Position numbers and translations under genes: made by a program | Notes under the pieces: model-generated | What the model was told of the DNA's origin: nothing | What the model saw: only the letters and a program-made list of their open reading frames with translations | The model's database searches: none | Origin: Oscillospiraceae bacterium | GTDB lineage: Bacteria; Bacillota; Clostridia; Oscillospirales; QAMX01 | Assembly: GCA_015067675.1 (NCBI GenBank) | Contig: SVMB01000002.1 | Span: 1,315 to 65,314, forward strand | Reading direction: 5' to 3' | Length of the DNA stretch: 64,000 nt | Shown here: one piece after another, positions 2,170-59,761 of the stretch | Position numbering within the stretch: the first letter of the stretch is position 1 | Layout of the letters: every line of letters starts with the position of its first letter

Positions 2170-2295
2170 TCGCACTTCCTTTCCGGGATGTCTCCCGCAT
2201 CAAGCAATGCGGTGTTGGTCTCAAGCGGAAAATACAAAAGCCGGATAATATCAAGTCTGGCAAAGCCATGAAAACAGGCTTTGCCAGACTGTCAC

Positions 2296-3609: not shown

Positions 3610-3628
3610 GGATTTGCCCTCCTGTCAC

Positions 3629-4939: not shown

Positions 4940-5084
4940 GTTGTGTCCATCCTTTCAAGTGGTAAATGTCAGTTCAGATTATCTGCGATGAAATCCGCAC
5001 GGAATCATGATTCCCGCGCAAGTACAGTATAACGTAGTTGATTTGATTCGTCAATGATGTTTTTCAGATGATATACTGTCCCGC

Positions 5085-6986: not shown

Positions 6987-6994
6987 GGTGCGCC

Positions 6995-8655: not shown

Positions 8656-10863
8656 ATGAAACGAACCCTTACCATCCTGCTCATCCTTGCGTTTCTCATC
8701 TCCCTCACGGCCTGTGCACCGGCTGCTGCTCCACAGCAGACCACCACAACTGCCGCCACCACCGCAGACCCCGCATCCACTCACACGCCTCTTCCTGACA
8801 GTGAGGAATTTATGTACGTCGCCGAGCACGGCGCAGCCCCCGAATGGATGCGCGGCGTCAACACGGCTGTCGCCGGCAACGGCCGCTTCTGGCAGTACAT
8901 GACCAACGCCCAGAGCGATGACCCTACCCCGTTTATCGGTTCCATCCGGGCCGAGGGTAATTTCTTCGAACGCCACCCCTACATTTTCGAAGATCAGCAC
9001 ATTCTCAGCGCATTAGCGCCCATTCCCAGCGAACAAAACTGCCTCTGGTTCGTTGAAAGCGTTTTCATTCCCGACGGCAGAACGTATGAATCCCACACGC
9101 TCGTCCGCGTGAACGCGGATGGCGAGGCCGTCGTCTCCGACGACGTGACTTCAATCATCGATGAGCGTGAGATCAGCCGCTCCGTCGGCGTGGCACTCAC
9201 CGACGGGCGATACTTCCTCTGCGTGGAAGATCTTGTCTGCCTGTTTGACGGCGAAGGGGAGCTGATCTTCAAAACCACAGTTGATCAGCACATCAACTAC
9301 CCCGAGGCAGCACTCACGTCCTCCGGCGAAATCGCGCTGCTGATCGATGTCAACGGTGCGCGCAAGCTTTATCTGCTGGACGAAACCGCGCAGATGCTCA
9401 AACCTATCGGCACCGTGAACGAAGGGGTAAATGAAATCCATCTGGCCGGGGGCGATGAGTTCTTCGATCTCTACCTGTTTGATGAATCACTCTGGGGCTA
9501 TCACCTTGCCACGGGTGAAAAGACAAAGATTGTCGCCTTCTCCGACTTCGGTATGCAGCCGGACAACCTCGTACGCATCCTACCGGTAGGCGTATCGGAA
9601 ACCGGCGCTCCGAAATTCGGCTGTTATGAGATCTTCGGCAGTCAGATATCGCCCACAGTTCTCGAGCAGCGCGTCAAGGTGCCGGAGAAGATCACGCTGA
9701 CGCTGGGCGTGCGGCTTCCGGACAAGGAGTTGACGGACGCAGTATCTCAATTTAATCGTCAGAGTGCGGAATACCAGATTGAGGTTATACAGTATGCAAC
9801 CAAAGAAAACCCAGACGATCTTTCCGGTTTTTCCGTTGCACTTTCCACCGGCGATATCCCGGATATGCTGGCTTTATACGGTCTGCCGGAACACAGTTTG
9901 ATACAAAAGAAACTCTTGCGTGATCTGACACCGTTCATGGAGTCAGACCCGGATCTTTCACCTGATATGTTTTTGCCCAATATCTATGATCTGCTGACCT
10001 ATTACGATGATGCACTTTACGGCCTTGCTCCCGGCTTTTCCATAATGACCATGCATGCACTACGTTCACAGGCAGGAGAGATTTCAAAAGATTGGAACTT
10101 TGCTGATGCCTTGGCGGTTCTGGACGCTAATCCGGGATTGATACAGCCCATTGCAGGAGACCGCACGAGCTTCATGCAAACGTATATCATGTTCGCGGCG
10201 GAGCCGTTTGTGGACTGGCAGAATCTGACCTCTTCTTTTGACAGTGAGGAATTTCTGAGACTTTTGGAGTTTATAAGCAGGTTTCCGAAAGAAAAACCGT
10301 CTGAATATGACAGCAACATGGAAAGTCTTGCCGCAGGCGAAGCAATGCTGATGTTTGATATGGGAGTAACCTCACCGCTTGCCTATTTTTCTGATTTCCG
10401 TGCACGGTTTGGTACGGATCTGCAAACTCCTGGTTTTCCCGCCAGTGGATCGACCGTTTTGTTTTATGACAAAATCGCCATTACTACATATTGCATGTAT
10501 CCGGAAGGCGCATGGGAGTTTATACGCTCCTTTATTCTTGGCGTCGATGGTGAAGATCTTGGTTTCGAAATCCCGGTGCTTGAATCTGAATACAAAGCAA
10601 TGCTTGATTACTGGCATAGCTATTATGCTGAACACAACGACAGCATTTACAATGGTCAGCCGCTCTATCAGCCCACGGAAGAAGATTTTGCTGCCTACGA
10701 TGCCATAATCCGCAATGCAAAGTCGGAACAAACAACAGACCGCTATGTCCTCCCCATCATGGTTGAGGAAATCCAGGCATTCCTCGACGGCGTACGATCT
10801 GCCGAGGAAACCGCCGAGGTCATCCAGAGCCGGGTAGCCCTCGTGCTCGCCGAGATGCAGTAA
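8656..10863 (+). CDS. large lipoprotein: N-terminal repeat/beta-rich region plus C-terminal solute-binding-protein-like domain
   Basis: Signal peptide with lipobox (LISLTAC) and a Thr/Ala-rich linker. The C-terminal ~390 aa resembles family-1 extracellular solute-binding proteins. AAAGGAGG SD. Confidence 0.7.
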   Translation: MKRTLTILLILAFLISLTACAPAAAPQQTTTTAATTADPASTHTPLPDSEEFMYVAEHGAAPEWMRGVNTAVAGNGRFWQYMTNAQSDDPTPFIGSIRAEGNFFERHPYIFEDQHILSALAPIPSEQNCLWFVESVFIPDGRTYESHTLVRVNADGEAVVSDDVTSIIDEREISRSVGVALTDGRYFLCVEDLVCLFDGEGELIFKTTVDQHINYPEAALTSSGEIALLIDVNGARKLYLLDETAQMLKPIGTVNEGVNEIHLAGGDEFFDLYLFDESLWGYHLATGEKTKIVAFSDFGMQPDNLVRILPVGVSETGAPKFGCYEIFGSQISPTVLEQRVKVPEKITLTLGVRLPDKELTDAVSQFNRQSAEYQIEVIQYATKENPDDLSGFSVALSTGDIPDMLALYGLPEHSLIQKKLLRDLTPFMESDPDLSPDMFLPNIYDLLTYYDDALYGLAPGFSIMTMHALRSQAGEISKDWNFADALAVLDANPGLIQPIAGDRTSFMQTYIMFAAEPFVDWQNLTSSFDSEEFLRLLEFISRFPKEKPSEYDSNMESLAAGEAMLMFDMGVTSPLAYFSDFRARFGTDLQTPGFPASGSTVLFYDKIAITTYCMYPEGAWEFIRSFILGVDGEDLGFEIPVLESEYKAMLDYWHSYYAEHNDSIYNGQPLYQPTEEDFAAYDAIIRNAKSEQTTDRYVLPIMVEEIQAFLDGVRSAEETAEVIQSRVALVLAEMQ

Positions 10864-10999: not shown

Positions 11000-11078
11000 G
11001 TCGGCAGTGAATCTCCCGGGCCAAACGCACGGCCGGCGTTTTAGCCCCGGGGCATTTCATGGGAAGGAGGATTTCCTT

Positions 11079-12932
11079 TTGAACACCAGGGAATCAAAAC
11101 AGAAAGCATCCCACTCCGTGCTCAGCAATACCCTGTGGAGTTTTCGTACATCGCTTTCCTGCGCGCCCGGCGCGTTCTGGATGGCAGCGGCAATGGTGCC
11201 GCTCAACAGTATTATATCTTTCTGGCAGGTTTATGTGCCCGCCCTCGTGGTGGCTGAGTCCACCAGCGGCAAAGGTTATGAACAGGTACTCATTACCATG
11301 GGCATCTGGTTTGCGCTGATTCTGGCGGCAAGCCTTGTCCGGGATATCATCACGCGCTTTAATGAAAACGAATGGCAAAAGTATGCCATGCACATGGCGA
11401 TGCGCATCCGGCGCAAGTCCATGAGCTGCTTTTATGAGCAGTACGAGCGCAAGGAGGTACGCGACCTCTGCGACCGCGCCCTCATTACCACCCAGAGCTG
11501 GAACGGCAGGCAGCCGGTGACCGATCTGCAGAAGCAGTCGCTGCTGCTCATCGAAAACCTCATCGGCTATCTGCTGATGGGCGGCATCATCAGCGTTGCG
11601 GACTTCCGTCTGCTGCCCATTGTCATGCTCGGGCCGGTGGTAAATCTGTTTGCCGTGCGGGCGTTCAACCGCTGGAGCCAGAAGCATCACGAGCGTTACC
11701 GTGAGATCTCCCGGCGTCTCTCCTACGTCCTGCGAAAGCCCATGGACTTCGCCGCAGCCAAGGATATCCGCATCTACAGCATGCATGACTGGTTTTCCGA
11801 CACCTGCCGTCTCTTCATGGGACAGATCGACAAAGGCGAGCGTGAGAAAGTTCGCCGCCAGTTTGGCGTAAGCTTCCTCGCCCTTGCGATGATCCTGCTG
11901 CGCGACGGCGTATCCTACGCCTTTCTCATTGCGCTGACGCTCAGAGGCGGCATCAGCGTTGACCAGTTCGTGCTCTGCTTCGGCGCGATTTCGTCGTTCT
12001 CGTCCTTCTTCGGCAGCATTCTGGATGCTTTCGGCAAGCTCCATGAGACGAGCCTGCGCATTTGCGACCTGCGGGAGTATCTCGATCTGCCGGAGATGAC
12101 CGAGCGGGGTCATGAATCGATCGAGGCACATCTGGCCTCCGCGCCCGAGATCACCTTTGACCATGTGAGCTACCGCTACGCAGGCGCGGAGGAAGACACC
12201 ATCCGCGACCTGTCGCTGACCATCCACGCCGGGGAATCCGTGGCGCTGGTGGGCCTCAACGGCGCGGGTAAGACCACGCTTGTGAAGCTCATGTGCGGGC
12301 TTTACCGCCCCACCTCCGGCGAAATTCGTCTAAACGGCATCCCGGCAGACCAATTTCAGCTTCAGGACTATTACCGGATGTTCTCCCCGGTCTTTCAGGA
12401 CGCGCAGACTGCCTTTTTCTCCATCGGCGGCACCGTGTCGGCAAAGGTCAGCGGCGGCTATGATGAAGCCCGCGTCCTGCGCTGTCTGGAAGCTGCGGGA
12501 CTGGGCGAAAAGGTGAAGAGTCTCCCGAACGGCATTCACACGATGCTTGACAAGCAGCTAAACGAGAACGCCGTGGAGCTCTCCGGCGGCGAGGTGCAGA
12601 AGCTCATGCTTGCCCGGGCACTCTACAAAGACGCGCCGTTCCTGGTGCTGGACGAACCCACAGCGGCACTGGATCCCATCGCCGAAAACGCGGTCTATCA
12701 GGAGTACCGGCGCATGACGCACGGCAAATCGGCCCTTTTCATCTCCCACCGCCTTGCCTCCACCCGCTTCTGCGACCGGATCATCTACCTCAAGAACGGC
12801 GTAATTACCGAAACGGGCAGTCACGACGAGCTGATTGCGGCAGGCGGCGAATACGCAGAGCTTTATGAGCTGCAGAGCTGCTGGTACCGGGACGACTACA
12901 GAAAGGAGGACGACGACCATGACATTTCGTGA
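11079..12932 (+). CDS. ABC transporter, fused permease/ATP-binding protein (exporter type), subunit 1
   Basis: N-terminal TM region plus Walker A GLNGAGKTT, signature LSGGEVQK and Walker B FLVLDEPT. TTG at 11079 lies 8 nt after GGAAGGAGG. The ORF-track GTG at 11007 has no SD. Confidence 0.85.
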   Translation: MNTRESKQKASHSVLSNTLWSFRTSLSCAPGAFWMAAAMVPLNSIISFWQVYVPALVVAESTSGKGYEQVLITMGIWFALILAASLVRDIITRFNENEWQKYAMHMAMRIRRKSMSCFYEQYERKEVRDLCDRALITTQSWNGRQPVTDLQKQSLLLIENLIGYLLMGGIISVADFRLLPIVMLGPVVNLFAVRAFNRWSQKHHERYREISRRLSYVLRKPMDFAAAKDIRIYSMHDWFSDTCRLFMGQIDKGEREKVRRQFGVSFLALAMILLRDGVSYAFLIALTLRGGISVDQFVLCFGAISSFSSFFGSILDAFGKLHETSLRICDLREYLDLPEMTERGHESIEAHLASAPEITFDHVSYRYAGAEEDTIRDLSLTIHAGESVALVGLNGAGKTTLVKLMCGLYRPTSGEIRLNGIPADQFQLQDYYRMFSPVFQDAQTAFFSIGGTVSAKVSGGYDEARVLRCLEAAGLGEKVKSLPNGIHTMLDKQLNENAVELSGGEVQKLMLARALYKDAPFLVLDEPTAALDPIAENAVYQEYRRMTHGKSALFISHRLASTRFCDRIIYLKNGVITETGSHDELIAAGGEYAELYELQSCWYRDDYRKEDDDHDIS

Positions 12933-14727
12933 ACATATGGCCATGGCAAAGCGTGCGTTTTCATGGCAGCTGCGCTATGAGCGCAAGTATACGCTCTATC
13001 TGATCGTCCACACCCTGCTCACGGCGGGCAAATCCTACATCCCGCTGTATTTCGCAGCCGAGATCATCGACACGCTGGTGGCGGGAGAGCCGTGGCAGAC
13101 CGTGGCGATGTATGTGGTGCTGACGGTGGGTCTGACCTTCCTCGTCAACGCCGTCGCCGACTGGATCGCGCCGCGCATGAACGCCGAGCTTAACCGCACC
13201 TATCATCTTGAAAACTGGCGCTACAGCGAAAAGGCCATGGACATGGCCTACGAGTCCATCGAGGACCGTGAAGTGGAGATTCTGCGCGAGCGTACCCGTC
13301 AGGAGTCGCAGGTGGGCTACAACCGCTTCTATCTGCACCGTACCACCTCTGCAGTGATCTCCACCGTGACCCAGATTGTGCTGTCGATTGCGATGACGCT
13401 GTCGTTCTTCTTCAATCCCGCCGTGGCGCCCTGGATCAAGCTGACCTTCGCGCTGCTTCTGGCGGTAAACGTGACCATGGAGATCATCTGCACCGCCCGG
13501 TCGCAGAAGCTCACCAACGCCTTCTGGGACAGCTTCATATACGTCAACATTTTCGAAGAAAAGTACAACGGTTACATCAACAACTACACCACCGGCAAGG
13601 ATCTGCGTCTTTACGACATGGGAGACGGGATCATTGAAAACTTCGAGGCAAACGACCGGGACGTCTATACCCGCGGTAGAAAACTTGGAAAAGGACTGGT
13701 TCGTGAAAACTGGGCAATGGTGGTCATGAGCGAGGTGCTGAAGTTTGTCACCAACTTCCTGCTGGTGGCGGCAGCACTCTCGGGCGCGGTGAGCGTGGGC
13801 TCGATCTCAAAGTATGTGTCCAGCATCGTCAAGATGCTCACGGCCGTGTCAAAGCTCGTCAAGGACACGCAGCTGGCCTTCAACAATCACGAATACCTAG
13901 CCCGCTACTTTGCCTACTTCGACATCCCCAACAATATGTATCAGGGCACCTTAACGGTTGAAAAGCGTGACGACGTGGAGTACGACGTGGAGTTCCGGGA
14001 CGTTTCCTTCAAATACCCCGGCAGCGACACATACGCCCTGCGGCATGTGAGCCTGAAGTTCAAGGTCGGCGAAAAGCTGGCGGTGGTTGGCCTCAACGGC
14101 TCCGGCAAGACCACCTTCATCAAGCTCCTCTGCCGGCTGTACGATCCCACCGAGGGCGTGATTCTCCTCAACGGCGTGGACATCCGCAAATACGACTACA
14201 AGGAATATATGTCGATCTTCTCGGTGGTCTTTCAGGACTTCCGGCTGTTCGCCTTCTCTCTGGGGCAGAACGTGGCGGCAAGCACGGATTACGATCCCGA
14301 GCGGGTGAAGATGTGCCTTGAAAAGGCGGGTTTGGAGGAGCGGCTTGACGCGATGCCCAAGGGACTTGAGACCTGCCTGTACCGTGACTTCGACCCCGAG
14401 GGCGTGGAAATCTCCGGCGGCGAAGCCCAGAAGGTCGCCCTTGCCCGTGCGCTTTACAAGAACGCGCCCTTCATCATCCTCGACGAGCCCACGGCGGCGC
14501 TGGATCCCGTGGCGGAGTATGAGATCTACTCCCGCTTCAACCGCATCGTCGGCGAGCGTACCACGGTCTACATCTCCCACCGGCTTGCCTCCTGCCGCTT
14601 CTGCGACAATATTCTGGTCTTTGACGCAGGGCAAATCGTGCAGCAGGGCAGCCATGAGGCGCTCATCGGCGACGAATCCGGCCGGTATCACGCGCTGTGG
14701 CACGCACAGGCGCAGTATTATGTGTGA
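12919..14727 (+). CDS. ABC transporter, fused permease/ATP-binding protein (exporter type), subunit 2
   Basis: GLNGSGKTT, ISGGEAQK, FIILDEPT. ATG at 12919 follows GAAAGGAGGA and overlaps the end of the upstream gene by 14 nt, consistent with translational coupling. Confidence 0.85.
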   Translation: MTFREHMAMAKRAFSWQLRYERKYTLYLIVHTLLTAGKSYIPLYFAAEIIDTLVAGEPWQTVAMYVVLTVGLTFLVNAVADWIAPRMNAELNRTYHLENWRYSEKAMDMAYESIEDREVEILRERTRQESQVGYNRFYLHRTTSAVISTVTQIVLSIAMTLSFFFNPAVAPWIKLTFALLLAVNVTMEIICTARSQKLTNAFWDSFIYVNIFEEKYNGYINNYTTGKDLRLYDMGDGIIENFEANDRDVYTRGRKLGKGLVRENWAMVVMSEVLKFVTNFLLVAAALSGAVSVGSISKYVSSIVKMLTAVSKLVKDTQLAFNNHEYLARYFAYFDIPNNMYQGTLTVEKRDDVEYDVEFRDVSFKYPGSDTYALRHVSLKFKVGEKLAVVGLNGSGKTTFIKLLCRLYDPTEGVILLNGVDIRKYDYKEYMSIFSVVFQDFRLFAFSLGQNVAASTDYDPERVKMCLEKAGLEERLDAMPKGLETCLYRDFDPEGVEISGGEAQKVALARALYKNAPFIILDEPTAALDPVAEYEIYSRFNRIVGERTTVYISHRLASCRFCDNILVFDAGQIVQQGSHEALIGDESGRYHALWHAQAQYYV

Positions 14728-14740
14728 GAAACGTATTATG

Positions 14741-14781
14741 AAAAAGAGATCCCGGAGCTGTTGGCTCCGGGATCTCTTTTT
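14741..14781. terminator. bidirectional intrinsic terminator
   Basis: aaaaagagatcccggagc-tgtt-ggctccgggatctcttttt between convergent genes. Confidence 0.75.
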
Positions 14782-16369
14782 ACTCCTGTTCGTAATCGGT
14801 GATGATAAAGGCGATGGGTTCTGAGGAAATCCGGCCGTAATCGTTGGCGCAGAAGATCATGAAATGGCCGAAGGCATTGCCGTGGGAGGTGAGAACGGTT
14901 GATACGCTGCCCGCATCCAGTTCCTCAGGCGTCAGCATACGCTGGCGGTAGGAAATTGCGGCCTCTTCCTTCCAGGAAAGATAGGACGGCTTGCAGGCAA
15001 AGGCTCCTGAGAAGGCCGCATTGACCCGGCTCCCCTCCTTCGCGCCCAGCGCGTAGAGCGTTACATCGTCGCCGACGTTGAAAGAGAACACTATCCTGCC
15101 GTCAGCGTCGGTAAACATGGCGGCGGTTCGTACCACGATCCTGCCATCTTTCTCGCATACTGCGGCACGGACGGGATAGAGCCGCTTGCCGTCGGTGACG
15201 GCAATGGTCCCGGTATCGTTTGACAGCGTACCGTCTGCGGCATAGAGGCAGGCAGATTCCCGGGTCAGGGGACTGCCGTCAGGCTCCACGGGGGTGAGTG
15301 CAATGCGCGGGAAAGCCTGTCCCTCGGCGTCTGTCAGGGTCACAGCGGGAAGCCTGACGACATTGAAGCTGACCGAACGTGTCCGCCTGCCGGTTTTCTT
15401 GCAGTAAGCCGTATAATAGCCCGGCGCAAGGTCTGAAACGGTGCAGATTCTGAGCGTCTGTCCCAGAACCGTGGTGGGGATAATCCCCGTCAGGTCAATT
15501 TCCCGACGGGAATCCGCGCTTTCGACAATGAGAGTATCGGCATCGGCGTTTACGTTGAAGCAGACCGGCTCATCGGTCTGATAGTTTGCAAAGTCGCCGT
15601 GATCCGGCATCAGCTCCCGGTTATGGACATCGCCGAGCTCATTGCGGGTGGGCATATACTCCACGCTGTCCAGGAACCGGTAGCGGAAAATCTGGTACAT
15701 CTGTCCGGGTTTAGTGAGCGTATCATTGAAATCTTCTGCCGTGTACCATCTGCAAACAGGAAACGGCGGCATGCCTTCGGAGATTTCCACGCTCCGAACT
15801 TTTCCCTCCGCATCCCGGGCGATCCCGGTGACAATGCGCACATGACCGCCGGTGTGTCCGTCGGGGCGGGTGGTGACAAGGGTATCGCAAAGCTCCAGAC
15901 CATCGGCACTCTGGTCGGCAATGCGGTCAAACTCCGGCGCAATGTCCCATTCGTGGGTCGAGCGATGCAGCGGCAGACCCAGCGCATAGTTGACGAAAGT
16001 ACTGCATACGGTGCCGTAGGTGAAAAACGTGTTCCGGATGGTACAGTTAAACGCCGGCTCGTCGAAATCGGACAGATCGCGGGTATAGAGTACCGACGCG
16101 GGATTATCAACAGCGGTCACAAAGGTATCGATGGAGACGTCGAGTCCCACGAAACAATTGAGGATACGGGAGGAGGAATACGGGATGCCGGTATAGGCTT
16201 CCGGCTGCGTATGAGGTTTGCCGCTGCGTGTGGACTGGATGTATTTTCTCGGATTGATCTGCACCTCCATCACCGGCGACCAGGTGATATCCAGAAGCTG
16301 GCGGGCACGGCGCAGGACATTTTCCACGCCTCGGGAGCGGGGCTTATCGCAGATGAGCTGATCGTTCAT
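14780..16369 (-). CDS. hypothetical cytoplasmic protein; N-terminal domain with possible papain-like (NlpC/P60-type) Cys/His pair, C-terminal beta-rich region
   Basis: GTVCSTFVNYALG and GHTGGHVRIVTG are spaced like a Cys...His hydrolase core. AAGGAGAAGG SD. Sits 11 nt downstream of the preceding gene. Function not recognised. Confidence 0.55.
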   Translation of the reverse strand: MNDQLICDKPRSRGVENVLRRARQLLDITWSPVMEVQINPRKYIQSTRSGKPHTQPEAYTGIPYSSSRILNCFVGLDVSIDTFVTAVDNPASVLYTRDLSDFDEPAFNCTIRNTFFTYGTVCSTFVNYALGLPLHRSTHEWDIAPEFDRIADQSADGLELCDTLVTTRPDGHTGGHVRIVTGIARDAEGKVRSVEISEGMPPFPVCRWYTAEDFNDTLTKPGQMYQIFRYRFLDSVEYMPTRNELGDVHNRELMPDHGDFANYQTDEPVCFNVNADADTLIVESADSRREIDLTGIIPTTVLGQTLRICTVSDLAPGYYTAYCKKTGRRTRSVSFNVVRLPAVTLTDAEGQAFPRIALTPVEPDGSPLTRESACLYAADGTLSNDTGTIAVTDGKRLYPVRAAVCEKDGRIVVRTAAMFTDADGRIVFSFNVGDDVTLYALGAKEGSRVNAAFSGAFACKPSYLSWKEEAAISYRQRMLTPEELDAGSVSTVLTSHGNAFGHFMIFCANDYGRISSEPIAFIITDYEQE

Positions 16370-36648: not shown

Positions 36649-37302
36649 CTAGCGCAGCGCTTCCAGCGCCTTTTCATCGGCAATCTCCACCGTGCCGCGC
36701 GTCAGCCGCACCATGCCCTCGTTCTGGAAGTAGCGCAGCATACGCGTCACCACCTCCCGGGCGGTACCCAGATGGTTGGCGATCTTTTCGTGGGTGATTT
36801 TGAGCACATTCGTGTCCTCAAGCCGGCATTCTTCCAGCAGAAAAGCCGCCAGACGCCGATCAAAGCTCTTCCACATGATCTGCTCCATGAGCCACATGAC
36901 CTCGGAAAACCGGCTGCTGATGAGCAGATTTGCGTAATTGGACACGGCGATGGATTCCCCCATCAGTTCCTTGAACAGGCAGGAGGGGATGATCCACATC
37001 TCGCTGTCCTTTTCTGTCTCGATGATAATCTCAAACTGCACGTCCGGCATCACGCAGGAGGCCGAAAACAGGCAGATATCCCGTTCAAACAGACGGTAGA
37101 GGGTCACTTCACGGCCTTCCTCCGAGAGTACGTAGGCCCGGAGCTGTCCCGATGCGATCAAAAGAAGTCCCAGGCAGTCCATACTGCCGCGATGCAGTAT
37201 CGTACCGCCCTTTACCCGGCGGTATTCGGATGCGTGCCGAAGCCTTTCCTGCTGCGGCATCGTCAGCTTGTCCCAGAACGGCAGATACTCTGCAAGCTCC
37301 AT
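36649..37302 (-). CDS. Crp/Fnr family transcriptional regulator
   Basis: cNMP-binding-like N-terminus plus C-terminal HTH (THEKIANHLGTAREVVTRMLRYFQNEG). Confidence 0.85.
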   Translation of the reverse strand: MELAEYLPFWDKLTMPQQERLRHASEYRRVKGGTILHRGSMDCLGLLLIASGQLRAYVLSEEGREVTLYRLFERDICLFSASCVMPDVQFEIIIETEKDSEMWIIPSCLFKELMGESIAVSNYANLLISSRFSEVMWLMEQIMWKSFDRRLAAFLLEECRLEDTNVLKITHEKIANHLGTAREVVTRMLRYFQNEGMVRLTRGTVEIADEKALEALR

Positions 37303-37329: not shown

Positions 37330-37358
37330 AGTATAGCGCAATTTTTCCGTTTCGTCAA
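37330..37358 (-). promoter_or_regulatory. promoter of the Crp/Fnr gene
   Basis: Minus strand: TTGACG-17 nt-TATACT. Confidence 0.5.
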
Positions 37359-37407
37359 TTCTTTCTCGGGATTTCATCATTTCTCAGCGATATAAGAGGG
37401 CTGCGGC

Positions 37408-37597
37408 AAAATGCAGTACCGGACTGTGATTCGCAGCAGATGTTAAGCGGCGCAGCCGAGTGAGGAACGCTTTGCGTTCCTCGGGGTGCAGGGGCGTGCC
37501 GCCCCTGCCGAGGGGGACAAAGGGGGGCGAGCAGCCCACCGTCGCTCCTGTAAGGCGCAGTAACAGAATGAAAGATAAAGCGGATAGAAGACGGCAA
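37408..37597. repeat. left arm of long inverted repeat
   Basis: Reverse complement of 37902-38090 with ~9 differences (hand alignment). Confidence 0.9.
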
Positions 37598-37723
37598 TAT
37601 AAAGAAAATCTAATGAAACTGGTGGGTTTTGCAGCTTTTTCTTCATCCTTCCGTCGAGACGCAAGTGAAACGAACGTCGAGCCACGATTGAACACGTATT
37701 CTGCTATACCAAGAGATAGAGAA

Positions 37724-37771
37724 ATGCCGTCTTCTGCAACATGACCGCGTTGCAGAAGACGGCATCTTTTT
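37724..37771. terminator. bidirectional terminator at the centre of the inverted-repeat element
   Basis: atgccgtcttctgcaa-N10-ttgcagaagacggcat. Followed by cttttt on plus and tttctctatctctt on minus. Confidence 0.75.
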
Positions 37772-37901
37772 GTTCCGTTATGTTGAAGCAGACAGCTTCT
37801 ATCATGGCTTGTGACTCGTGAACGCGCAGCGTTCACTTGTCACTCGACGTTGGTACAGCAGAAGATACGATCAGGCGGCGAGGTTTTGAGTTAATCATTT
37901 T

Positions 37902-38090
37902 TTGCCGTCCTCTATCTGCTTTATCTTCCATTCTGTTACTGCGCCATACGGGATCGACGGTGGGCTGCTCGCCCCCCTTTGTCCCCCCGGCAGGGGCGGC
38001 ACGCCCCTGCACCCCGAGGAACGCAAAGCGTTCCTCACTCGGCTGCGCCGCTTAACATCTGCTGCGAATCACAGTCCGGCATTGCATTTT
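37902..38090. repeat. right arm of long inverted repeat
   Basis: See left arm. Contains hairpins gcaggggc-ggcac-gcccctgc (37990-38010) and gaggaacgc-aaa-gcgttcctc (38016-38036). Confidence 0.9.
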
Positions 38091-38124
38091 ACAGTATTCT
38101 CTTTCGGAATAACCCTATCAGTTT

Positions 38125-39327
38125 TCAATCCAACAGTGCCAGCACGTCCGGGAACAGCTGCAGACTGCGCCGCAGGATCCCATGCATCTGCGCAATGGCA
38201 ACGCCGTAGTTCACAATCGGCACATCTGCGCTTGCGCAGCGCGCAATCCGGCTCTTCATCTCCGCTTCATTCAGCATACAGCCGCCGCAGTGCACCACCA
38301 GCGCATAGTCTCTCACGTCCTCGGGAAATTCCCCGCCGGAGGTAAAGCTGTAGGATGGTTTTACTCCGGTGAACTTTTCAATCCAGCCGGGGATCTTGAT
38401 CGTACCGATGTCATTGCACTGCCGGTGATGGGTGCAGCCTTCGGAGATAAGCACCCGGTCGCCTTCCCGCAGCTTTGCAAGCGCCGCCGCGCCCCGGATC
38501 AGCTCATACAGATCGCCCTTATATCGAGCCATCAGGATCGAGAAGGACGTCAGCGGGATATCCGCCGGCGTATCGGCGCTCACCTTACCGAATACCTGCG
38601 AATCGGTAATCACCATCTTCGGCTTACGTGCAAGGGAAGCCAGGGTATTTTTGAGTTCCGTATCCTGACAGGTCACGACAATAGCATGGGCATCCAGAAT
38701 ATCCCGGATGGTCAGCTGCTGCGGCAGGATCAGGCGACCCTTGGGCGCCGCTTCGTCAATGGGCGTCACCAGTACCACAATATCCCCCGGCTCCAGCAGA
38801 TCGGCCACCAGCAGCTTCTGATTGCCGGCCTTGCCTGCAAAGCTGCCCAGCTTCTCTTTCAGCGCCTGTATGCCCTCACCGGTGTCAGCACTGACGTACA
38901 GACTCGGCCCATCCACCGCCGGGCGTTCCGCCATCAGATCGGCCTTGTTATACGCCACCACATACGGGATCTTCCGCGCCCGGATGTTTTCCAGCAGTGC
39001 CTCATCCTCGGCGCTTATCCCCTGCGTACCGTCCACCACCATCACGGCAATGTCCGTATGGGCAAGCGCCTGCCGGGCTTTCTGCACGCGCATCGCGCCC
39101 AGCTCGCCCTCGTCATCCAGTCCGGGCGTGTCGATGATGACCACCGGCCCCAGAGGCTTGAGCTCCATGCTTTTGCGAACAGGGTCCGTGGTGGTACCCT
39201 TCACGTCGGAAACCACACTGAGCGACTGCCCGGTTACAGCGTTGACAAGGCTTGACTTTCCGGCATTGCGCATACCGAAAAAGCCGATATGCAACCGTTC
39301 ACCGGATGCTACACTGTTAAGACTCAT
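38125..39327 (-). CDS. hydF: [FeFe]-hydrogenase H-cluster maturation GTPase HydF
   Basis: GMRNAGKSS P-loop, DTPG, NKAD. C-terminal CTHH...HCGGC cluster motif. Confidence 0.9.
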   Translation of the reverse strand: MSLNSVASGERLHIGFFGMRNAGKSSLVNAVTGQSLSVVSDVKGTTTDPVRKSMELKPLGPVVIIDTPGLDDEGELGAMRVQKARQALAHTDIAVMVVDGTQGISAEDEALLENIRARKIPYVVAYNKADLMAERPAVDGPSLYVSADTGEGIQALKEKLGSFAGKAGNQKLLVADLLEPGDIVVLVTPIDEAAPKGRLILPQQLTIRDILDAHAIVVTCQDTELKNTLASLARKPKMVITDSQVFGKVSADTPADIPLTSFSILMARYKGDLYELIRGAAALAKLREGDRVLISEGCTHHRQCNDIGTIKIPGWIEKFTGVKPSYSFTSGGEFPEDVRDYALVVHCGGCMLNEAEMKSRIARCASADVPIVNYGVAIAQMHGILRRSLQLFPDVLALLD

Positions 39328-52588: not shown

Positions 52589-53418
52589 CTACAGCGTCCA
52601 GGTTCCGTGACGTTTTCTCAGCGCTGCCGGCGTGATTGCAAATCGTTCCTTGAAAATCTTATTGAAGTGGCTGAAGCTTTGAAATCCCAGTTCCTCGGAA
52701 ATATCCTCTGCCGGTCTGTACGTCAGGATTAACTCATTATAGGCACTGCGCAGACGCTGCTCGTTGATATACTGTTTCAGGCTCATACCGAAGTGCGCTC
52801 TTATGAGCCTGGCCAGATGACTCCGGCTGTAATGCGAAAGCTGCTCAAAGGCCGTGATCCCCAGTCTGAGATTCTCCGTTTTCTTCATCTCATCAATCGC
52901 CTTTGCAAGCTGTCCCGGCAGTTCCCGCGTTTCACTGAGACAGTCGGTATTTTCGATGCAGGAGCGCAGAAACAACGCCAGCAGCAGCTTGCAGTCATAC
53001 TCTGTCACGTTCTGTCGGTCACGGTAATAGTCCTCCGACGGCATCAGTCCGGGTACGGCGGGAAACTGCAGCGGCGCGGCGTATGCCCGGATGCGCTGCA
53101 GCAGCAGAGCGTCGTATATATCACAGATCCGTTCAAATTCCTCCTGTCTGACCGAAAGGGAGATGATCCGCATCTCTTCGGACTGATCCTGAAAGCAATG
53201 CCGGTCTCCGGGACGCAGCAGCGTGACGGTTCCCGATTCACAGATACATTCCTGTTCATTAAGCAGCTGCTTTCCCCAACCGTCCGCAAACCAGATCAGC
53301 TCATAGAAATCATGGGAGTGATACACGTCGGTCAGCTTTCGGTTCCGGATATGCTGAAAGATATATTCTTTTTTCTGGCAATGTTGATTTTGTCAAATGC
53401 GTATTCCACAGCAGTCAT
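52589..53418 (-). pseudogene. AraC family regulator interrupted by a 1-nt frameshift in a 6-nt homopolymer
   Basis: ATG at 53418 (GAGGG SD) opens MTAVEYAFDKINIARKK. After the A6 run (plus-strand T6 at 53369-53374) the AraC frame continues EYIFQHIRNRKLTDVYHSHDFYEL... to 52589. The two frames are offset by 1 nt. Confidence 0.6.
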
Positions 53419-53461: not shown

Positions 53462-53490
53462 ATTATACCGTTTTTCGCTCATTTTGGCAA
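53462..53490 (-). promoter_or_regulatory. outward-facing promoter at the left junction of repeat copy 2
   Basis: Minus strand: TTGCCA (first bases of the repeat)-17 nt-TATAAT (flank), reading toward the AraC gene. Confidence 0.45.
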
Positions 53491-53987
53491 TACAAAGAAA
53501 ATTTGATGAAGTTGGTGGTTTTTGAGACGTTTTCTTCATTCTTCCGTCGAGGCGCAAGTGAAACGAGCGTCGAGCCACGATTGAACACGTATTCTGCTAT
53601 ACCAAGTGATAAAGAAATGCCGTCTTCTGCAGCATAACCCAGTTGCAAAAGACGGCATTTTTTTGTTTCGTGATGCTGAAGCAGACGGCATCTATCGTAG
53701 CTCGTGACTCGTAAACGCGCAGCGTTCACTTGTCACTCGTCGTTGGTACAGCAGAAGATACGATCAGGCGGCGAGGTTTTGATTTAATCATTTTTTTGCC
53801 GTCCTCTATCCGCTTTATCTGTCATTCTGTTACCGCGACATACGGGATCGACGGGGGCTCCTCGCCCCCTTTGACCCCCCGCCAGGACCAGGGCCCTGGG
53901 CCCTGAGGAACGCAAAGCGTTCCTCACCCGGCTGCGCCGCTTAACATCTGCCGCGAATCGTTGTCCGGAATTGCATTTTATCCGCAG
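53486..53987. repeat. second copy of the repeat element (core plus right arm only)
   Basis: Colinear with 37593-38090, roughly 85% identity by hand alignment. The left arm is absent. Confidence 0.85.
53617..53665. terminator. bidirectional terminator inside repeat copy 2
   Basis: atgccgtcttctgca...tgcaaaagacggcat followed by ttttttt on plus and tttctttatc on minus. Confidence 0.7.
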
Positions 53988-54005
53988 CGTCAAAGTGGCG
54001 GCTAA

Positions 54006-56207
54006 TCAAAAGCGCATCAGCACCGCTTCTCCCGCCTGCAGCTTCACCGCATCCACCGTTTCCCCGGTCACCACGTTCACTGCCGTGCCCGGATGCAGAG
54101 ATTCCGCCTTGAGAATCGCAGCCTGATCGGTAAAGTTTGCTGCCAGGCAATATCCATTCCCGTCTCTCGCCGTGACAGTCAGGACGTGTATCCCGTCCAT
54201 CTTCTTACATTCCAGCGATCGGCTCAGCTGTGCGGTCTGATCAGCATCTCCCAACGTCAGCGCAAATCCCACGTTCAGGATTTCCGTGTTTCTGTCGACC
54301 CATTTGTATTCTCTGCAGAACGGCGCACAGACTTCTTCCGCATACAGCGTACCGCTCTTTTCTCTTCGAACGATATCAACCTGCCGCCTGCCCTCTCTGA
54401 CAAGCGTCAGCGGCATATTGGCGGCAATACCGATCTTGTTATCGAAATTCACATAGCTGCCCAGCGCAATGGTCTCAAACCGGCCGGCATAATCGCCGCC
54501 GCGCAGATACCGGCTGCCGTTTTCAAACACGATATGGCGCTGTCTGCCGTTAAAGATGTCGTTGGGCACGTTATAGAAGATGCCCGAGACCTCCGAGATG
54601 AATACGCGGTTGAGCGTCCTGGCATACTGCAGGCAAAGCACGGTATTGTCATCGGGAAGGGCTGCAAACGCAATCTGCTTTCTGGCCATCTCCTCCAGGT
54701 TCTGTCCTTCTGCCATAAAGAGGTCGGAAACCGAGATGGTGGAACCGATTGTCAGGAAGCCTCCGTCAAAGGAGTACACCTTATTTGCTTCTTCCTCGTC
54801 ATAATTGAGTCTGCCGACGCCGACGATCCTCGCGCCCAGATTAAAACGCCATTCCGCCAGCGAGCTGTCGTCCTGCGGCACAAGCAGTCCCTGGGGATTT
54901 TCGGCGGACTTCCATACGAAAGAGGCATAGCGGTTCCCGGTCGCGGAGAAAGCTGCACCGTGGAAGTCGTCCTTCCAGGCAGTGATCTTCTCAGGCTGAC
55001 GGAAGCGCCGCAGGTCAAATTTCTGGTGCCAGTAAAGGCTCATGGAAATCGTATTGGCGCGGTCGCTCTCCAGACGGGTGTAATAAAGAGGCGACAGGTT
55101 TTCAAAGTGACCGAAGCGGTTTGAGAGGAACGAGCCGTCCCCGTTGACCGCTGTTTCCTTCTGCAGGATTTTCAGCCATCCGTCCTCCAGCATGCCGCAG
55201 TCTTCTCCGCAGACGTCCTCGATCAGCGCCCAGGAGGGCAGCGCATAGTCCTGACAATAGCAATATCTGGCACGGGAATCTCCGCCGATGCGCAGGAGTC
55301 TGCCGTCATCAAAGGTAGTCGAGCGGATCAGCTTCCACTGCTCCTTGAGATGGTGGTAGATGATATCGTCCGCCTTCATGCCCCGGGCTTTCAGAGAGAA
55401 ATGGATCATGGCGATATTGGACAGGCAGATATTCAGGTAGCCGATATTCAGATAGCCATGGTGATTCGTGGCGTAGGTTTCAAACATATTCGCACCGACA
55501 AACAGATCGCCGACACGCAGGCCATCCACGATCTCATCGGAATTTTCATCAGACTCAATCGAGATGCCGTTGGCAAAAAACCGTCTTGCCTTGTCAATGT
55601 AGCGCTCCTTGTTCGGCGTATCGGGATAGAGCATGGCTGCGCGGTACAAAATCGCACCGTTCCAGATATTGCTTTCGGGGCGGTTGAGATTGTTATAGCC
55701 GCCCACGGTCTGGCTGACCCTCGCACTGCCGTCCAGACCCGCTACAACCGGGAACTCATGCAGGATATAGTCGCTTTCGGATATCATCACCTTCTTCAAA
55801 AGCGCCTTATCCTCTTCGGTCAGATCCTCCCAGATGGCCTCAATGCCATGAAACATCCGCTCGATGCCCAATACATAGATCCAGTTGTGACCCCACTTCC
55901 CGCCGTCGATACAGACAAAGTCGCCCTCCAGATGGGTACGCAGAGTATAGCGCAGCATGCCCAGCGCCTGCTCCAGCACCTGCTCTCTGGTGATCGGAAG
56001 ATCGGACAGATCCACATTTTCCAGCTTCGCCAGAATGGCAAACGCGGAAAACGCCTTCTGATGGGTATGAACGCCCCAATGACCGTGTTCACCCGCGCCG
56101 TAGCAGATCAGACCCTCTTTTTCCGGGCAGTAATAGAGATGTTTCTGGGAAAACACCACCCAGTTCTTCAGCAACGCAGCATAGCCGTTAAAATCAAACT
56201 CTTTCAT
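54006..56207 (-). CDS. hypothetical protein, possibly (alpha/alpha)-toroid plus beta-sandwich, heparinase II/III or polysaccharide-lyase-like
   Basis: 733-aa cytoplasmic protein with weak resemblance to heparinase II/III-type architecture. GGGAGAAAG SD. Confidence 0.4.
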   Translation of the reverse strand: MKEFDFNGYAALLKNWVVFSQKHLYYCPEKEGLICYGAGEHGHWGVHTHQKAFSAFAILAKLENVDLSDLPITREQVLEQALGMLRYTLRTHLEGDFVCIDGGKWGHNWIYVLGIERMFHGIEAIWEDLTEEDKALLKKVMISESDYILHEFPVVAGLDGSARVSQTVGGYNNLNRPESNIWNGAILYRAAMLYPDTPNKERYIDKARRFFANGISIESDENSDEIVDGLRVGDLFVGANMFETYATNHHGYLNIGYLNICLSNIAMIHFSLKARGMKADDIIYHHLKEQWKLIRSTTFDDGRLLRIGGDSRARYCYCQDYALPSWALIEDVCGEDCGMLEDGWLKILQKETAVNGDGSFLSNRFGHFENLSPLYYTRLESDRANTISMSLYWHQKFDLRRFRQPEKITAWKDDFHGAAFSATGNRYASFVWKSAENPQGLLVPQDDSSLAEWRFNLGARIVGVGRLNYDEEEANKVYSFDGGFLTIGSTISVSDLFMAEGQNLEEMARKQIAFAALPDDNTVLCLQYARTLNRVFISEVSGIFYNVPNDIFNGRQRHIVFENGSRYLRGGDYAGRFETIALGSYVNFDNKIGIAANMPLTLVREGRRQVDIVRREKSGTLYAEEVCAPFCREYKWVDRNTEILNVGFALTLGDADQTAQLSRSLECKKMDGIHVLTVTARDGNGYCLAANFTDQAAILKAESLHPGTAVNVVTGETVDAVKLQAGEAVLMRF

Positions 56208-56329
56208 GATTCTTTCTCCCGTGTATGATGGTTTTTCGGTCCGTTATCCATGGAGGTTTGCGCTTTATTTCATTATAAACAGGACCGGTGAAAAAAGAAA
56301 CCTCATATTCAATGCTAAAGGGGTGATTT

Positions 56330-56370
56330 TCGAAACACAAAGAGAGCACAGCCCCAACAGCTATGCTCTC
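56330..56370 (-). terminator. possible terminator between the glycyl-radical enzyme gene and the downstream gene
   Basis: Minus strand: gagagca-N15-tgctctc followed by tttgtgtttcg. Confidence 0.4.
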
Positions 56371-56439
56371 CCTGATTTTGGTATATTACAAAAAACCTTC
56401 ACAGCAACATGAAACGCCCCTCGGAGGGATACCCCACAC

Positions 56440-58620
56440 TCAGTATTCCGTCCTGTCCATGATCTCCTGCTGAAGCACAGGAGAAAGCCGCGTGTAATAA
56501 TCACTGTAGCCGCCGATGCGAACGATCAGGTCTCTGTGAGCTTCCGGATGGACTCTGGCATCCTCCAGCGTTTCCCGGTCCACCACGTTGACCTGCAGTT
56601 CTATGCCGCCCCGCTCCATAAAGGTGCGGACAAACGCGGTGAGATTCTCCCCTCTTGATCCGTTGAGATTGTCTCTTCCGAATTTCAGGTTCACCACCAT
56701 GCCGCCAAGCAGAGCGCTCTGGTCCCACGAGGTCAGTGAGCAAAGCATCGCCGTCGGGCCGTTTACGTCTCTGCCCTGCACCGCACTGCAGCCGTCGGAA
56801 TAGGAGGTTCCCGCGTGCCGTCCGTCAAAGGTTGCCCCCATCTTTGCACCCATCGTAGCGTGATTGATATAGCTGAATGTTCCGGGCATCATATGATCCC
56901 AGAGCACAGTGTTCTTCCCGAAAATTCCCTGCAGAGACGCCGCAAGCCTTGCCGCCATGGCGTCAGCCATGGGATCAGCGTTTCCGTAATGCGGAAGCTT
57001 GTTGATGATGAACTGACGCAGGGGCTCATTTTCCGCATAATCCCCGGCAACAGTCTCCGCAAACGCCTCAAGCGTGAGCTTTTTCCGGGTATATACCAGT
57101 TCCGAGAGCGCAATCAGCGAATCCACCGCCGTGGCAAAGCCCACGAAAATGGGCTGTTCAAACATATACCGTTCTCCGCCCTCGTAAATGCTCTTGCCGC
57201 GTGCGATACAGTCATCGATCAGCGCGCAGATGCGCATGGCTTCGTTTCCGATGCGGGCGCCCTCCAGAATGCGAACGGCGTAGTTCAGCGCCCTCGTCCC
57301 GACACTTGCTTTTAGTTCTTCCAGATAGCGCTCATAGAGCTCGTCAAAGCTATCAAACGTCTGCTTCCGGGTCAACTGCACCAGGAAACGGGGCAGATCG
57401 ATGGTAAAGGGCGTGGAATGGGCCTTGGATTTGCCGATCACCGAGATCTCCGCGCAGGTGGAGTGAATATAATTCACCGCGTCGGCAGGAGAAACACCGT
57501 AGTGCCGGATCAGGGACTCCGTAATAGCGTCGTCATTGTAAAAGGCAGGATGCGTAGTCCCGTGGGACAAAATCTCCGCGCAGAATGTAAGCAGCTCGCT
57601 GCTTGTTTCCTTATTAACCGCCAGCGCACCGTTGGGATCGGGGAGCTTCAGGTGGTCAAGAGCGTTGAGGAACATATAGGTCAGATCGTTTTCCACAAGC
57701 TTCCCGTTTTCGTCCTTTCCTCCCACGATGAATCCGCAGGCGGCACGTGAAAAGACGCGGTCAGATACATACAGGCAGAAGTTATCGATCAGCTCCTGCG
57801 TAAACTCCTTTGTCAGCGCACCGGTTTGGATATCTTTCTGATAATAGGGATAGAGATAACGATCAGGCCGTCCCAGCGCATAGAGTCCGAATAACGTCGA
57901 GAGGAAAAACTGCACGCTCTGAATGGCCTCATAAAAACTTTCGGCCGGTTCATCGGGAACCTTTTTCAGCATCGTGGCCAGCCGCAGAAGTTCGCTTTTT
58001 CGCGGCTCCGGCTTTTCCTCCGCGAGCCGGAGCGCTTCTTCCGCGTATCGCTTTGCAAGGTCGGAAACGGCATCCAGCTCGATGAGGCAGCACCGGTAAA
58101 ACTCCCACTGCTTAACCGCCTCCATGTCGGGATAGACCCCAGGCGCATTCAGATCCAGTTCCTCAAGCTTTTCCCTGATCTCCGTGCGCAGGCCGTTGAC
58201 TCCTACGCGCAGGAGCTTATCAAAGTCAAGGCAGATATGGTCCTTTCTCGGCGGGCGCTCTATAAGGGTGTGGGCCGACATCCCAAATGCCTCACAGAGC
58301 CGGTCGTATTCCGCCTGCTCCTCTTCGGTATAGTCGGGAAGATACAGGTGCCCCAGCAGAAGCTCGTCATCATAGATCATGGGCTTTGCTTCATACAGCT
58401 CCTCTGCCTCGGCATAAGAGGTGCGCAGCCGTGTCGTCGGGGCGGACGCGTTCTTTTCAAATCCGCGCAGAAAGCCAAGCGTCATCAGCCGGTCTCCCGA
58501 CCGGTAACACTTATATTTTTCAGGATGATACGGATCCTTCATGGCAGGGACCGTCAGACCCATATAGGTCTCTTTCACCCGTTTCATTCTCGCGGTCATC
58601 GCTTCCGCCTGATAGTTCAT
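56440..58620 (-). CDS. glycyl radical enzyme, PFL2/glycerol-dehydratase-like family
   Basis: C-terminal glycyl-radical motif LIVRIGGYSDYYTRLSPVLQQEIMDRT. Cys loop HSTCAEIS (C-x-E). GAGGTG SD before the ATG at 58620. Confidence 0.85.
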   Translation of the reverse strand: MNYQAEAMTARMKRVKETYMGLTVPAMKDPYHPEKYKCYRSGDRLMTLGFLRGFEKNASAPTTRLRTSYAEAEELYEAKPMIYDDELLLGHLYLPDYTEEEQAEYDRLCEAFGMSAHTLIERPPRKDHICLDFDKLLRVGVNGLRTEIREKLEELDLNAPGVYPDMEAVKQWEFYRCCLIELDAVSDLAKRYAEEALRLAEEKPEPRKSELLRLATMLKKVPDEPAESFYEAIQSVQFFLSTLFGLYALGRPDRYLYPYYQKDIQTGALTKEFTQELIDNFCLYVSDRVFSRAACGFIVGGKDENGKLVENDLTYMFLNALDHLKLPDPNGALAVNKETSSELLTFCAEILSHGTTHPAFYNDDAITESLIRHYGVSPADAVNYIHSTCAEISVIGKSKAHSTPFTIDLPRFLVQLTRKQTFDSFDELYERYLEELKASVGTRALNYAVRILEGARIGNEAMRICALIDDCIARGKSIYEGGERYMFEQPIFVGFATAVDSLIALSELVYTRKKLTLEAFAETVAGDYAENEPLRQFIINKLPHYGNADPMADAMAARLAASLQGIFGKNTVLWDHMMPGTFSYINHATMGAKMGATFDGRHAGTSYSDGCSAVQGRDVNGPTAMLCSLTSWDQSALLGGMVVNLKFGRDNLNGSRGENLTAFVRTFMERGGIELQVNVVDRETLEDARVHPEAHRDLIVRIGGYSDYYTRLSPVLQQEIMDRTEY

Positions 58621-58733
58621 AGCGTTCACCTCTTGACAAAGTATGGTTTTATGCCATAATGATAGTTGATGTTTCTTGTAAACAATAGTATACTTTCTCG
58701 AAAACATAAAATATCTGAACCAAGAGGTTAAAA

Positions 58734-59686: not shown

Positions 59687-59761
<75 letters not shown>

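Follow-up and report, generated by a model that had tools for sequence, protein, structure and literature searches.

An interspersed foldback repeat beside gene 3' ends in an Oscillospiraceae bacterium

Two genes of an Oscillospiraceae bacterium, hydF and a gene for a protein of 733 amino acids (aa), are each followed by a copy of the same non-coding element, copy 1 behind hydF and copy 2 behind the 733-aa gene. Both lie in a 64,000-nt stretch of GenBank assembly GCA_015067675.1 (contig SVMB01000002.1, positions 1,315 to 65,314), which we call the window. A preliminary description of the window proposed that the element is a structured 3' untranslated region (UTR) of the two genes, and the question is whether it is such a device or something of wider occurrence. 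We found that it belongs to a new family within a familiar class of intergenic repeats of bacteria and is not a dedicated 3' UTR device of hydF or the 733-aa gene. It is likely, in our judgment, that this family is a dispersed non-coding foldback repeat resembling SPRITE, REPIN, and MITE elements (MITE, miniature inverted-repeat transposable element), that it spread non-autonomously or by ectopic recombination and has since come to act as a bidirectional terminator, and that copy 2 has lost its left arm.

The two copies were compared with a repeat finder, a MAFFT alignment, and BLAST, the BLAST identity being obtained against a metagenome contig identical to the window. Positions 53486 to 53987 are colinear with 37593 to 38095 and 88.6% identical to them over 501 columns (E = 3e-173), and the repeat finder resolved this match into blocks of 89% (37593-37892 and 53486-53785), 91% (37898-37963 and 53792-53857), and 88% identity (38000-38091 and 53889-53980). 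In the MAFFT alignment, homology starts at the arm/core junction GGCAAT and stops at the outer terminus, breaking off sharply at the element ends, and the left arm of copy 1 has no counterpart at copy 2. The preliminary description is thus borne out on colinearity and on the missing left arm; its figure of about 85% identity pointed correctly to homology but was slightly low. Its distances to the stop codons and its geometry were also accurate. The hydF stop lies at 38125, 34 nt from the conserved terminus TTGCATTT(T), which ends at 38090, a distance that falls to 29 nt when the terminus is taken to include its CTGTA extension (to 38095); the 733-aa gene stops at 54006, leaving a gap of 26 or 18 nt to a copy 2 end at 53979 or 53987. 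On the minus strand, each gene is followed by the arm, a tail of ~135 nt, and then the central hairpin, as had been described.

Copy 1 matches its own reverse complement at 77.2% over 702 columns and is therefore a quasi-palindrome throughout. Its arms of ~190 nt are 94 to 95% complementary and 304 nt apart, and the two halves of its core have the motifs CGTCGAG..AAGTGAA..GAGCCA in common, in inverted orientation. What the preliminary description called the core is a diverged palindrome in its own right, and its central hairpin is the apex of the whole-element foldback. As RNA, copy 1 is predicted to form one giant hairpin (-517 kcal/mol, z = -36.7) and copy 2 local hairpins only (-207.6 kcal/mol, z = -6.25). 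The GC content is 0.51 to 0.53 in the 1-kb windows holding the two copies.

We reached further members of the family by translating a spurious open reading frame (ORF) that runs through the element and searching a protein collection with the product; the contigs of the matches held more copies. At least nine copies occur at unrelated loci, apparently all in one metagenome-assembled genome (MAG). Besides copies 1 and 2 (W1 and W2), there are four full elements within 9 kb at locus L019 (E1, ~6646-7354; E2, 9807-10505; E3, 12340-13096; E4, ~14726-15439), two at L027 (F1, 5291-6060; F2, 9042-9755), and one at L018. Because the proteins of the window, L019, and L027 form one NCBI accession series (MBE6928783 to MBE6931111, "MAG: Ruminococcaceae / Oscillospiraceae bacterium"), we infer that these three belong to one genome; the assignment covers them only. 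Since it was the element that led us to L019 and L027, their copy density is skewed upward; the unbiased figure is two copies per 64 kb. In other strains, L017 holds the orthologous copy of W1, and L022 and L023 hold orthologous copies of E2.

Full elements measure 0.65 to 0.76 kb, and copies overall range from 502 to 760 nt. Nearly all full copies share the termini AAATGCAAT...ATTGCATTT, which are frequently extended to CTGYRGCATAAATGCAAT, with (CTGYRGCAT)AAATGCAAT at the left end, and the inner arm is conserved as TTGCCGTCCTCTAT..GCTTNATCT..CATTCTG. Each arm of ~190 nt comprises four GC-rich, REP-like hairpin modules, H1 to H4, one of them optional; H3 (GAGGAACGCAAAGCGTTCCTC) is either there or missing as a whole unit across arms. 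H2 exists in at least three sequence versions, every one of which is palindromic. The preliminary description had noticed this change of sequence with palindromy kept between 37990-38010 and 53885-53902, and the further copies behave alike. A-rich and T-rich junctions flank the family core, whose central hairpin has a 5' A-tract and a 3' T-tract in every copy examined. Complementarity between the arms spans 76 to 98% across the family, with most copies at only 76 to 79%. The two arms of W1 are of one type (95% identical) and those of E3 are both of the other type (98%), whereas the arms of E1, E2, and E4 are unlike (72 to 79%).

Several called genes fall inside the repeats. "Proteins" of 86 to 207 aa (L027, 8973-9500; L019, 10001-10567; P0001-P0004 and P0022-P0027) are element translations without a Pfam match, and a 175-aa "gene" in L027 is likewise a translation of the repeat. 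At L019 position 14724, the called start codon of a GDSL-lipase gene lies within H3 of the truncated left arm of E4; the true start is probably further downstream.

Searches of larger collections returned little. A scan of a genome collection with the arm palindrome GAGGAACGCAAAGCGTTCCTC gave 11 loci, all matching just the 21-mer, and a scan of a metagenome collection with CTGCGCCGCTTAACATCTGC gave 3 chance matches, this collection being evidently without element-bearing samples of the Joint Genome Institute (JGI). No match to the element was obtained in plasmid and phage collections (BLAST) or in viral contigs (three scans). Rfam likewise yielded nothing for the element at either of the two cut-offs used, its best scores of 17 to 19 bits comparing with gathering thresholds of 50 to 59; the only matches above threshold were a tRNA in the window and a tetrahydrofolate (THF) riboswitch in L019.

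As to placement, all nine loci are intergenic, none of them between divergent genes, two between convergent genes, and seven between tandem genes, and in this small and partly biased sample at least one end of the element faces a gene's 3' end at every locus. Eleven ends do so, seven of which are within 7 nt of the stop codon or overlap it. Three unrelated genes (YitT-like, YlmH-like, and HTH_3) stop within the element, at the CTG TAG of the terminal CTGTAGCATAAATGCAAT (Leu-stop sites at 12340-12345, 13091-13096, and 7349-7354 in L019). No other terminator accompanies 9 of the 11 ends (gaps of -3, -3, -3, 0, 4, 4, 7, 18, and 29 nt). For hydF and the 733-aa gene in particular, no convincing terminator was found between the stop and the element, a single 5-bp stem at 54011-54024 being at chance level. 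The element is accordingly the only visible terminator candidate of the upstream gene here, as the preliminary description had it, and at most other copies as well. That description had set a role in these genes against many copies placed at random; the copies are indeed many, but they are clustered at gene 3' ends.

The central hairpin has a 17-bp stem ahead of its tails, identical in the two window copies save one mismatch in copy 2 (C-A on the plus strand, G-U on the minus strand). The better T-tract is on the plus strand (CTTTTTGTT and TTTTTTTGTT), antisense to the flanking genes. From its sequence, the hairpin looks like a bidirectional terminator whose stronger side points away from those genes.

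In at least four of the seven tandem sites, the next gene has a promoter-like site that lies within ~45 nt past the element's far end or spans that end (distances of 14 to 42 nt, with copy 2 spanning). These sites are matches to the promoter consensus, which we read as putative promoters; those of copies 1 and 2 come from consensus scans over 12 positions, and those of E2 and F1 were read by eye. Copy 1 has its site just past its left end (Table 1). At the truncated left junction of copy 2, the site is of the sigma-70 type, with the -35 TTGCCA contributed by the element and the -10 TATAAT by the flank. TTTACA-17-TACAAT follows E2, with the THF riboswitch after it, and TTGACA-17-TATACT follows F1. 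The family thus takes up the interval that separates a stop codon from the following promoter-like site, or two convergent genes from each other, where a terminator is normally found; this supports the idea that the element supplies the terminator.

Two side observations concern these sites. The junction site of copy 2 recalls the hybrid promoters made by insertion sequence (IS) elements. The THF riboswitch (Rfam RF01831, 85 bits; L019, 10558-10684) lies upstream of the S-component gene of an energy-coupling factor (ECF) transporter, directly after E2 and its promoter-like site.

We postulate that the family dispersed non-autonomously, or else through ectopic recombination, by way of DNA able to form hairpins and with an enzyme that would be supplied in trans. 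Once settled, a copy would serve as a bidirectional intrinsic terminator and as a structure protecting the 3' end of the upstream transcript, including those of hydF and the 733-aa gene; co-option as a bidirectional terminator is probable. At copy 2, loss of the left arm would have placed TTGCCA of the element 17 nt from TATAAT of the flank, upstream of the AraC-family gene. Read-through of a two-armed copy would yield a duplex sensitive to RNase III.

Several findings weigh against this interpretation. No target-site duplication was detected at either candidate boundary of W1, E1, E2, E3, F1, or F2, and the argument for mobility is that of dispersal, with no empty site seen within the species among the strains reached. 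Among the 38 window ORFs scanned, in a genome of which ~100 kb could be reached, we saw no transposase and no other enzyme that might mobilise the element. Two of the 11 ends that face a gene's 3' end lie behind an ordinary hairpin and T-run terminator, at gaps of 55 and 59 nt (the left end of E1, which follows FakA, and the right end of E4, which follows a DUF4129 gene, both in L019). The minus-strand tails TTCTCTAT and TTCTTTAT are only moderate, with 5 to 6 T of 8, and the opposite strand is stronger. Because two copies follow ordinary terminators, the element is not an obligatory terminator at every site. In addition, the flanks of full copies showed no conserved target motif, and no gene for a RAYT (Y1 HUH transposase) was seen in the window.

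An alternative hypothesis, which we regard as doubtful, is that the family is a self-propagating "stop-and-terminate" cassette, a foldback of ~0.7 kb that inserts at the very 3' ends of ORFs or survives nowhere else, carries in a bidirectional terminator that replaces those of the host, and is mobilised as single-stranded DNA (ssDNA) hairpins by an HUH/RAYT-like or other enzyme. The terminal CTG-TAG-CAT-AA provides stop codons in two of three frames within the first 11 nt. If the hypothesis held, the strict Watson-Crick covariation and the arm conversion described below would reflect ssDNA-hairpin mobilisation in Clostridia; we found no description of REPIN-type systems in Clostridia in the literature.

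The original proposal sees in the element a device that works at the RNA level and was selected for these genes. In this view a structured 3' UTR of 330 to 380 nt would stabilise or process the mRNA or give rise to a small RNA (sRNA), and its position directly after stop codons without another terminator and the strong predicted folds of copies 1 and 2 are in keeping with it. The hairpins do covary. In an alignment of 15 arms, 95.6% of the 367 cells of hairpins H1 to H4 are in standard pairs, and double-sided changes affect 8 pairs and 27 cells, compared with 4.6 pairs and 6.9 cells in shuffled alignments, none of 500 shuffles being as high. When the 3' partner was slid by 1 to 3 columns, just 40 to 54% of cells paired. 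Also in favor of an RNA device, both one-sided changes between copies 1 and 2 (C-A in the central hairpin and A-C in a core hairpin, as read on the plus strand) become G-U on the transcribed minus strand.

The same data, however, tell against a single RNA. Not one of the 367 arm-hairpin cells is a G-U pair, and with respect to the direction of transcription the arms are found either way round, so the constraint appears to be the same on both strands; this fits DNA hairpins or a function in either transcriptional direction rather than one specific RNA. The central-hairpin stems vary between copies by matched two-sided changes, and their one-sided transitions favor the transcribed strand in five cases and the other strand in three, which is no signal. 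Selection on structure, as first proposed, is therefore upheld to the extent that stems are kept by double-sided changes, but the constraint is not tied to one RNA strand. The same element stands behind at least nine unrelated genes in both orientations, and blocks have been swapped between strains regardless of any single RNA fold. Nor did the stable sRNA of ~330 nt that had been suggested receive support, as a consensus scan gave no promoter-like site inside copy 1 and Rfam gave no match. We consider an RNA device dedicated to these genes unlikely.

Strains 96 to 98.6% identical keep the element at both window loci, with contigs that end inside it; L024, L025, L026, L037, and L013, found by exact-protein look-up, all carry it, and their assemblies break within it. 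Strain L017 is near-identical to the window in the flank, outer left arm, and central core of its hydF-crp locus, but a different subtype has taken the place of the inner parts of both arms. An orthologue of E2 has lost exactly hairpin H2. Block replacement in L017, the like and unlike arm pairs, and this loss together indicate ectopic and arm-to-arm gene conversion and the loss of single modules. Since both processes appear to operate in the family, copy 2 is most simply explained as a derivative that lost its left arm.

The nearest other species reached (L035 and L036), whose HydF is 76 to 77% identical, lack the element. They have the same hydE-hydG-hydF operon with no element within 13 kb; neighbouring genes are rearranged, so neither offers a clean empty site. 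Their spacers measure 132 to 235 nt, and that of L036 contains an ordinary terminator. This hydF terminator (L036, 7240-7280; AAAAAATGGCAGTACC-TTTTT-GGTATTTGCCATTTTTT) resembles the element termini (AAAATGCAGTACCGG...CCGGTACTGCATTTT); the likeness may be due to chance, or the family ends may derive from a terminator stem. Downstream of htpG in L031 (86% DNA identity; 12100-12680), a 973-nt spacer without GC-rich arms has two terminator-like hairpins (AACCCGTATTCTGTAA...) and a GTGAACGC hairpin resembling the element core. It could be a copy that has decayed or an ancestral form without arms.

The close complementarity of its arms, with 304 nt between them, might also make copy 1 an invertible switch, in which recombination between arms flips the core and its asymmetric terminator and so gates read-through from hydF into the Crp/Fnr-family gene. 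The central terminator's much better T-tract on one strand and the breaks inside the arms in other samples' contigs would suit such a switch. We hold it to be improbable. The core has the same orientation in all three independent assemblies that extend into it (L012, L024, and L017), no recombinase gene was found among the window ORFs scanned, one-armed copy 2 is unable to invert, and the arms of most family copies are only 76 to 79% complementary; contig breaks are expected of any dispersed repeat.

Still less probable is a coding core, specifying either a small protein or a toxin-antitoxin pair of type I whose convergent transcripts meet at the central bidirectional terminator. A plus-strand ORF of 43 codons (37613-37744 and 53506-53637) is open in both copies, with its stop in the hairpin loop. 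It has no Shine-Dalgarno sequence, however, and its peptide is not hydrophobic; differences between the copies number 3, 7, and 4 by codon position, without a third-position excess, and stop codons break the ORF in two of the four other copies with a tblastn match (E2 and L18), the rest being short fragments only. Coding potential of the element was rejected on the ground that no ORF is conserved between copies. A terminal mini-ORF of 11 codons (MQYRTVIRSRC) was likewise set aside: conservation of the nucleotides accounts for it, some copies have it interrupted, and it lacks a consistent Shine-Dalgarno sequence. Finally, with only 16 kb between them, a shared orientation, and a regulator gene downstream of each, the two window copies are placed as a local segmental duplication of a regulatory spacer without mobility or family would leave them, but at least seven further copies at unrelated loci with the same conserved termini, together with homology that ends sharply at the element ends, make this hardly credible.

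The family matches none of the known families in full and is best filed under interspersed intergenic palindromic repeats. Judged by published descriptions, its closest analogue is the pneumococcal SPRITE, which has a long stem and U-rich tract with AAAA/TTTT termini, is enriched at the 3' ends of coding sequences (CDSs) and between convergent genes, lacks both an established target-site duplication and an IS whose ends match, and has been proposed to be a co-opted terminator (PMC3049150). The family described here is similarly non-coding and interspersed, with a long stem and U-rich tract and with A-run and T-run termini, and it too lies at CDS 3' ends or between convergent genes, with no target-site duplication or IS partner seen in the sequence reached. 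The two are set apart by description, not by sequence comparison: SPRITE is a pneumococcal, AT-rich single hairpin of <200 bp, whereas our elements are 0.5 to 0.76 kb long (three to five times larger), have ~53% GC, and form a nested foldback with four GC-rich modules per arm in an Oscillospiraceae host.

REP, BIME, and REPIN sequences, which are associated with RAYT transposases, are GC-rich extragenic palindromes of 20 to 25 nt, a REPIN of ~60 to 110 nt being composed of two REPs and a spacer (PMC3116915, PMC3337134). Common to them and this family are inverted GC-rich palindromes that would form a larger hairpin in ssDNA or RNA, a mosaic modular make-up, the lack of a target-site duplication, and vertical persistence at fixed sites. 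In contrast to a REPIN, each arm here has four different hairpins and ~60 nt of conserved unpaired sequence, the arms enclose a 300-nt core with a terminator-like apex, and the whole is about seven times REPIN scale.

Correia repeat enclosed elements (CREE) of Neisseria are ~100 to 155 bp long, have terminal inverted repeats of 26 bp, and show a TA duplication (PMC2649163; reviewed in PMC10969869). Like CREE, this family is bounded by inverted repeats, would be co-transcribed with its neighbours, and might create promoters at its ends, and its paired repeats in RNA would be candidate RNase III substrates; the read-through RNA of copy 1 is predicted to form a duplex of ~190 bp. Neither the size of CREE nor its 26-bp repeats nor its TA duplication applies here. 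The family also recalls MITEs and BOX elements (PMC10969869, PMC3049150) in being non-coding and dispersed between genes, with terminal inverted repeats, stable predicted RNA folds, and optional modules comparable to boxB. It differs from MITEs in that no target-site duplication or cognate IS was found and in that its inverted repeats span the whole element instead of 10 to 50 bp.

If the family does terminate transcription of many genes, it would clearly exemplify a repeat taking over a basic gene-boundary function genome-wide. New promoter-like junctions arise from it as well, that at the AraC-family gene being an example. The repeat accounts for assemblies of this rumen-type Oscillospiraceae lineage breaking at gene ends, yields spurious ORF calls, and can be used as a marker for strain typing. 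Its covariation, restricted to Watson-Crick pairs, and its block exchange make it a good system for asking whether such repeats are maintained at the DNA or the RNA level. Worth following are how closely the family is tied to stop codons, its exclusively Watson-Crick covariation, and its mode of spread.

Table 1. Features of the two window copies and their surroundings (window coordinates)
Feature	Coordinates	Strand	Basis and remarks
Copy 1 (W1), full two-armed foldback, 696 nt	37400..38095		Self-match and fold; termini AAAATGCAG... and ...TTGCATTTTACAG
Copy 1 left arm	37400..37597		95.3% identity to the right arm's reverse complement; modules H1-H4
Copy 1 core	37598..37901		A-rich junction, diverged inverted halves, central hairpin, T-rich junction
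Copy 1 central hairpin	37724..37765		17-bp stem, 8-nt loop; apex of palindrome; plus-strand terminator call with tail CTTTTTGTTC; minus-strand tail TTCTCTATCT
Copy 1 right arm	37902..38095		H1 37959-37977, H2 37990-38010, H3 38016-38036, H4 38040-38050; end 29 nt from hydF stop
Copy 2 (W2), core and right arm without left arm	53486..53987		88.6% identity to copy 1; junction alignment
Copy 2 central hairpin	53617..53658		Plus-strand tail TTTTTTTGTT; minus-strand tail TTCTTTATCA
Copy 2 right arm	53792..53987		H2 variant 53885-53902 (CCAGGGCCCTGG), H3 53905-53925, terminus TTGCATTTTATCCGCAG
hydF	38125..39327	-	Pfam HydF_dimer, HydF_tetramer, MMR_HSR1; upstream of copy 1
Crp/Fnr-family regulator	36649..37302	-	Pfam HTH_Crp_2, Crp; downstream of copy 1
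733-aa protein	54006..56207	-	No Pfam match; annotated hypothetical protein MBE6928797.1; upstream of copy 2
AraC-family regulator	52589..53418	-	Downstream of copy 2; apparent -1 frameshift, A7 run near 53370
Promoter-like site, Crp/Fnr-family gene	37330..37358	-	TTGACG-17-TATACT, 10/12 matches; just past left end of copy 1
Promoter-like site, truncated left junction of copy 2	53462..53490	-	TTGCCA-17-TATAAT, 11/12 matches; upstream of AraC-family gene

The genes around copy 2 have features of their own. The 733-aa gene adjoins a gene for a glycyl-radical enzyme resembling pyruvate formate-lyase (PFL) (window 54006-58707), and in strain L037 its orthologue, in which ~112 nt are missing (window 55535-55646), was called with a product of 493 aa. 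The AraC-family gene has a good ribosome-binding site and an ATG at 53418 (window 53330-53418, minus strand), and its frame shifts in the A7 run at ~53370-53376; one extra A restores a continuous N-terminus (MTAVEYAFDKINIARKKEYIFQH...). The frameshift could be an assembly error, a mark of a pseudogene, or a slippery homopolymer.

Elsewhere in the window, a tRNA-Cys (GCA) at 59687-59761 on the minus strand is the sole RNA gene called by Rfam and ARAGORN. Adjacent paralogues encoding ABC-transporter ATPase fusions of 641 and 630 aa (window 11007-14727) share blocks of 72 to 92% DNA identity at an offset of 1831 to 1837 nt. Tandem paralogues at 2296-3609 and 3629-4939 on the minus strand, with weak ceramidase-like Pfam matches, show 71 to 79% DNA identity (window 2236-4957), and a conserved, partly palindromic intergenic motif of 32 nt occurs three times there (2236, 3569, and 4899) at a spacing of 1330 nt.

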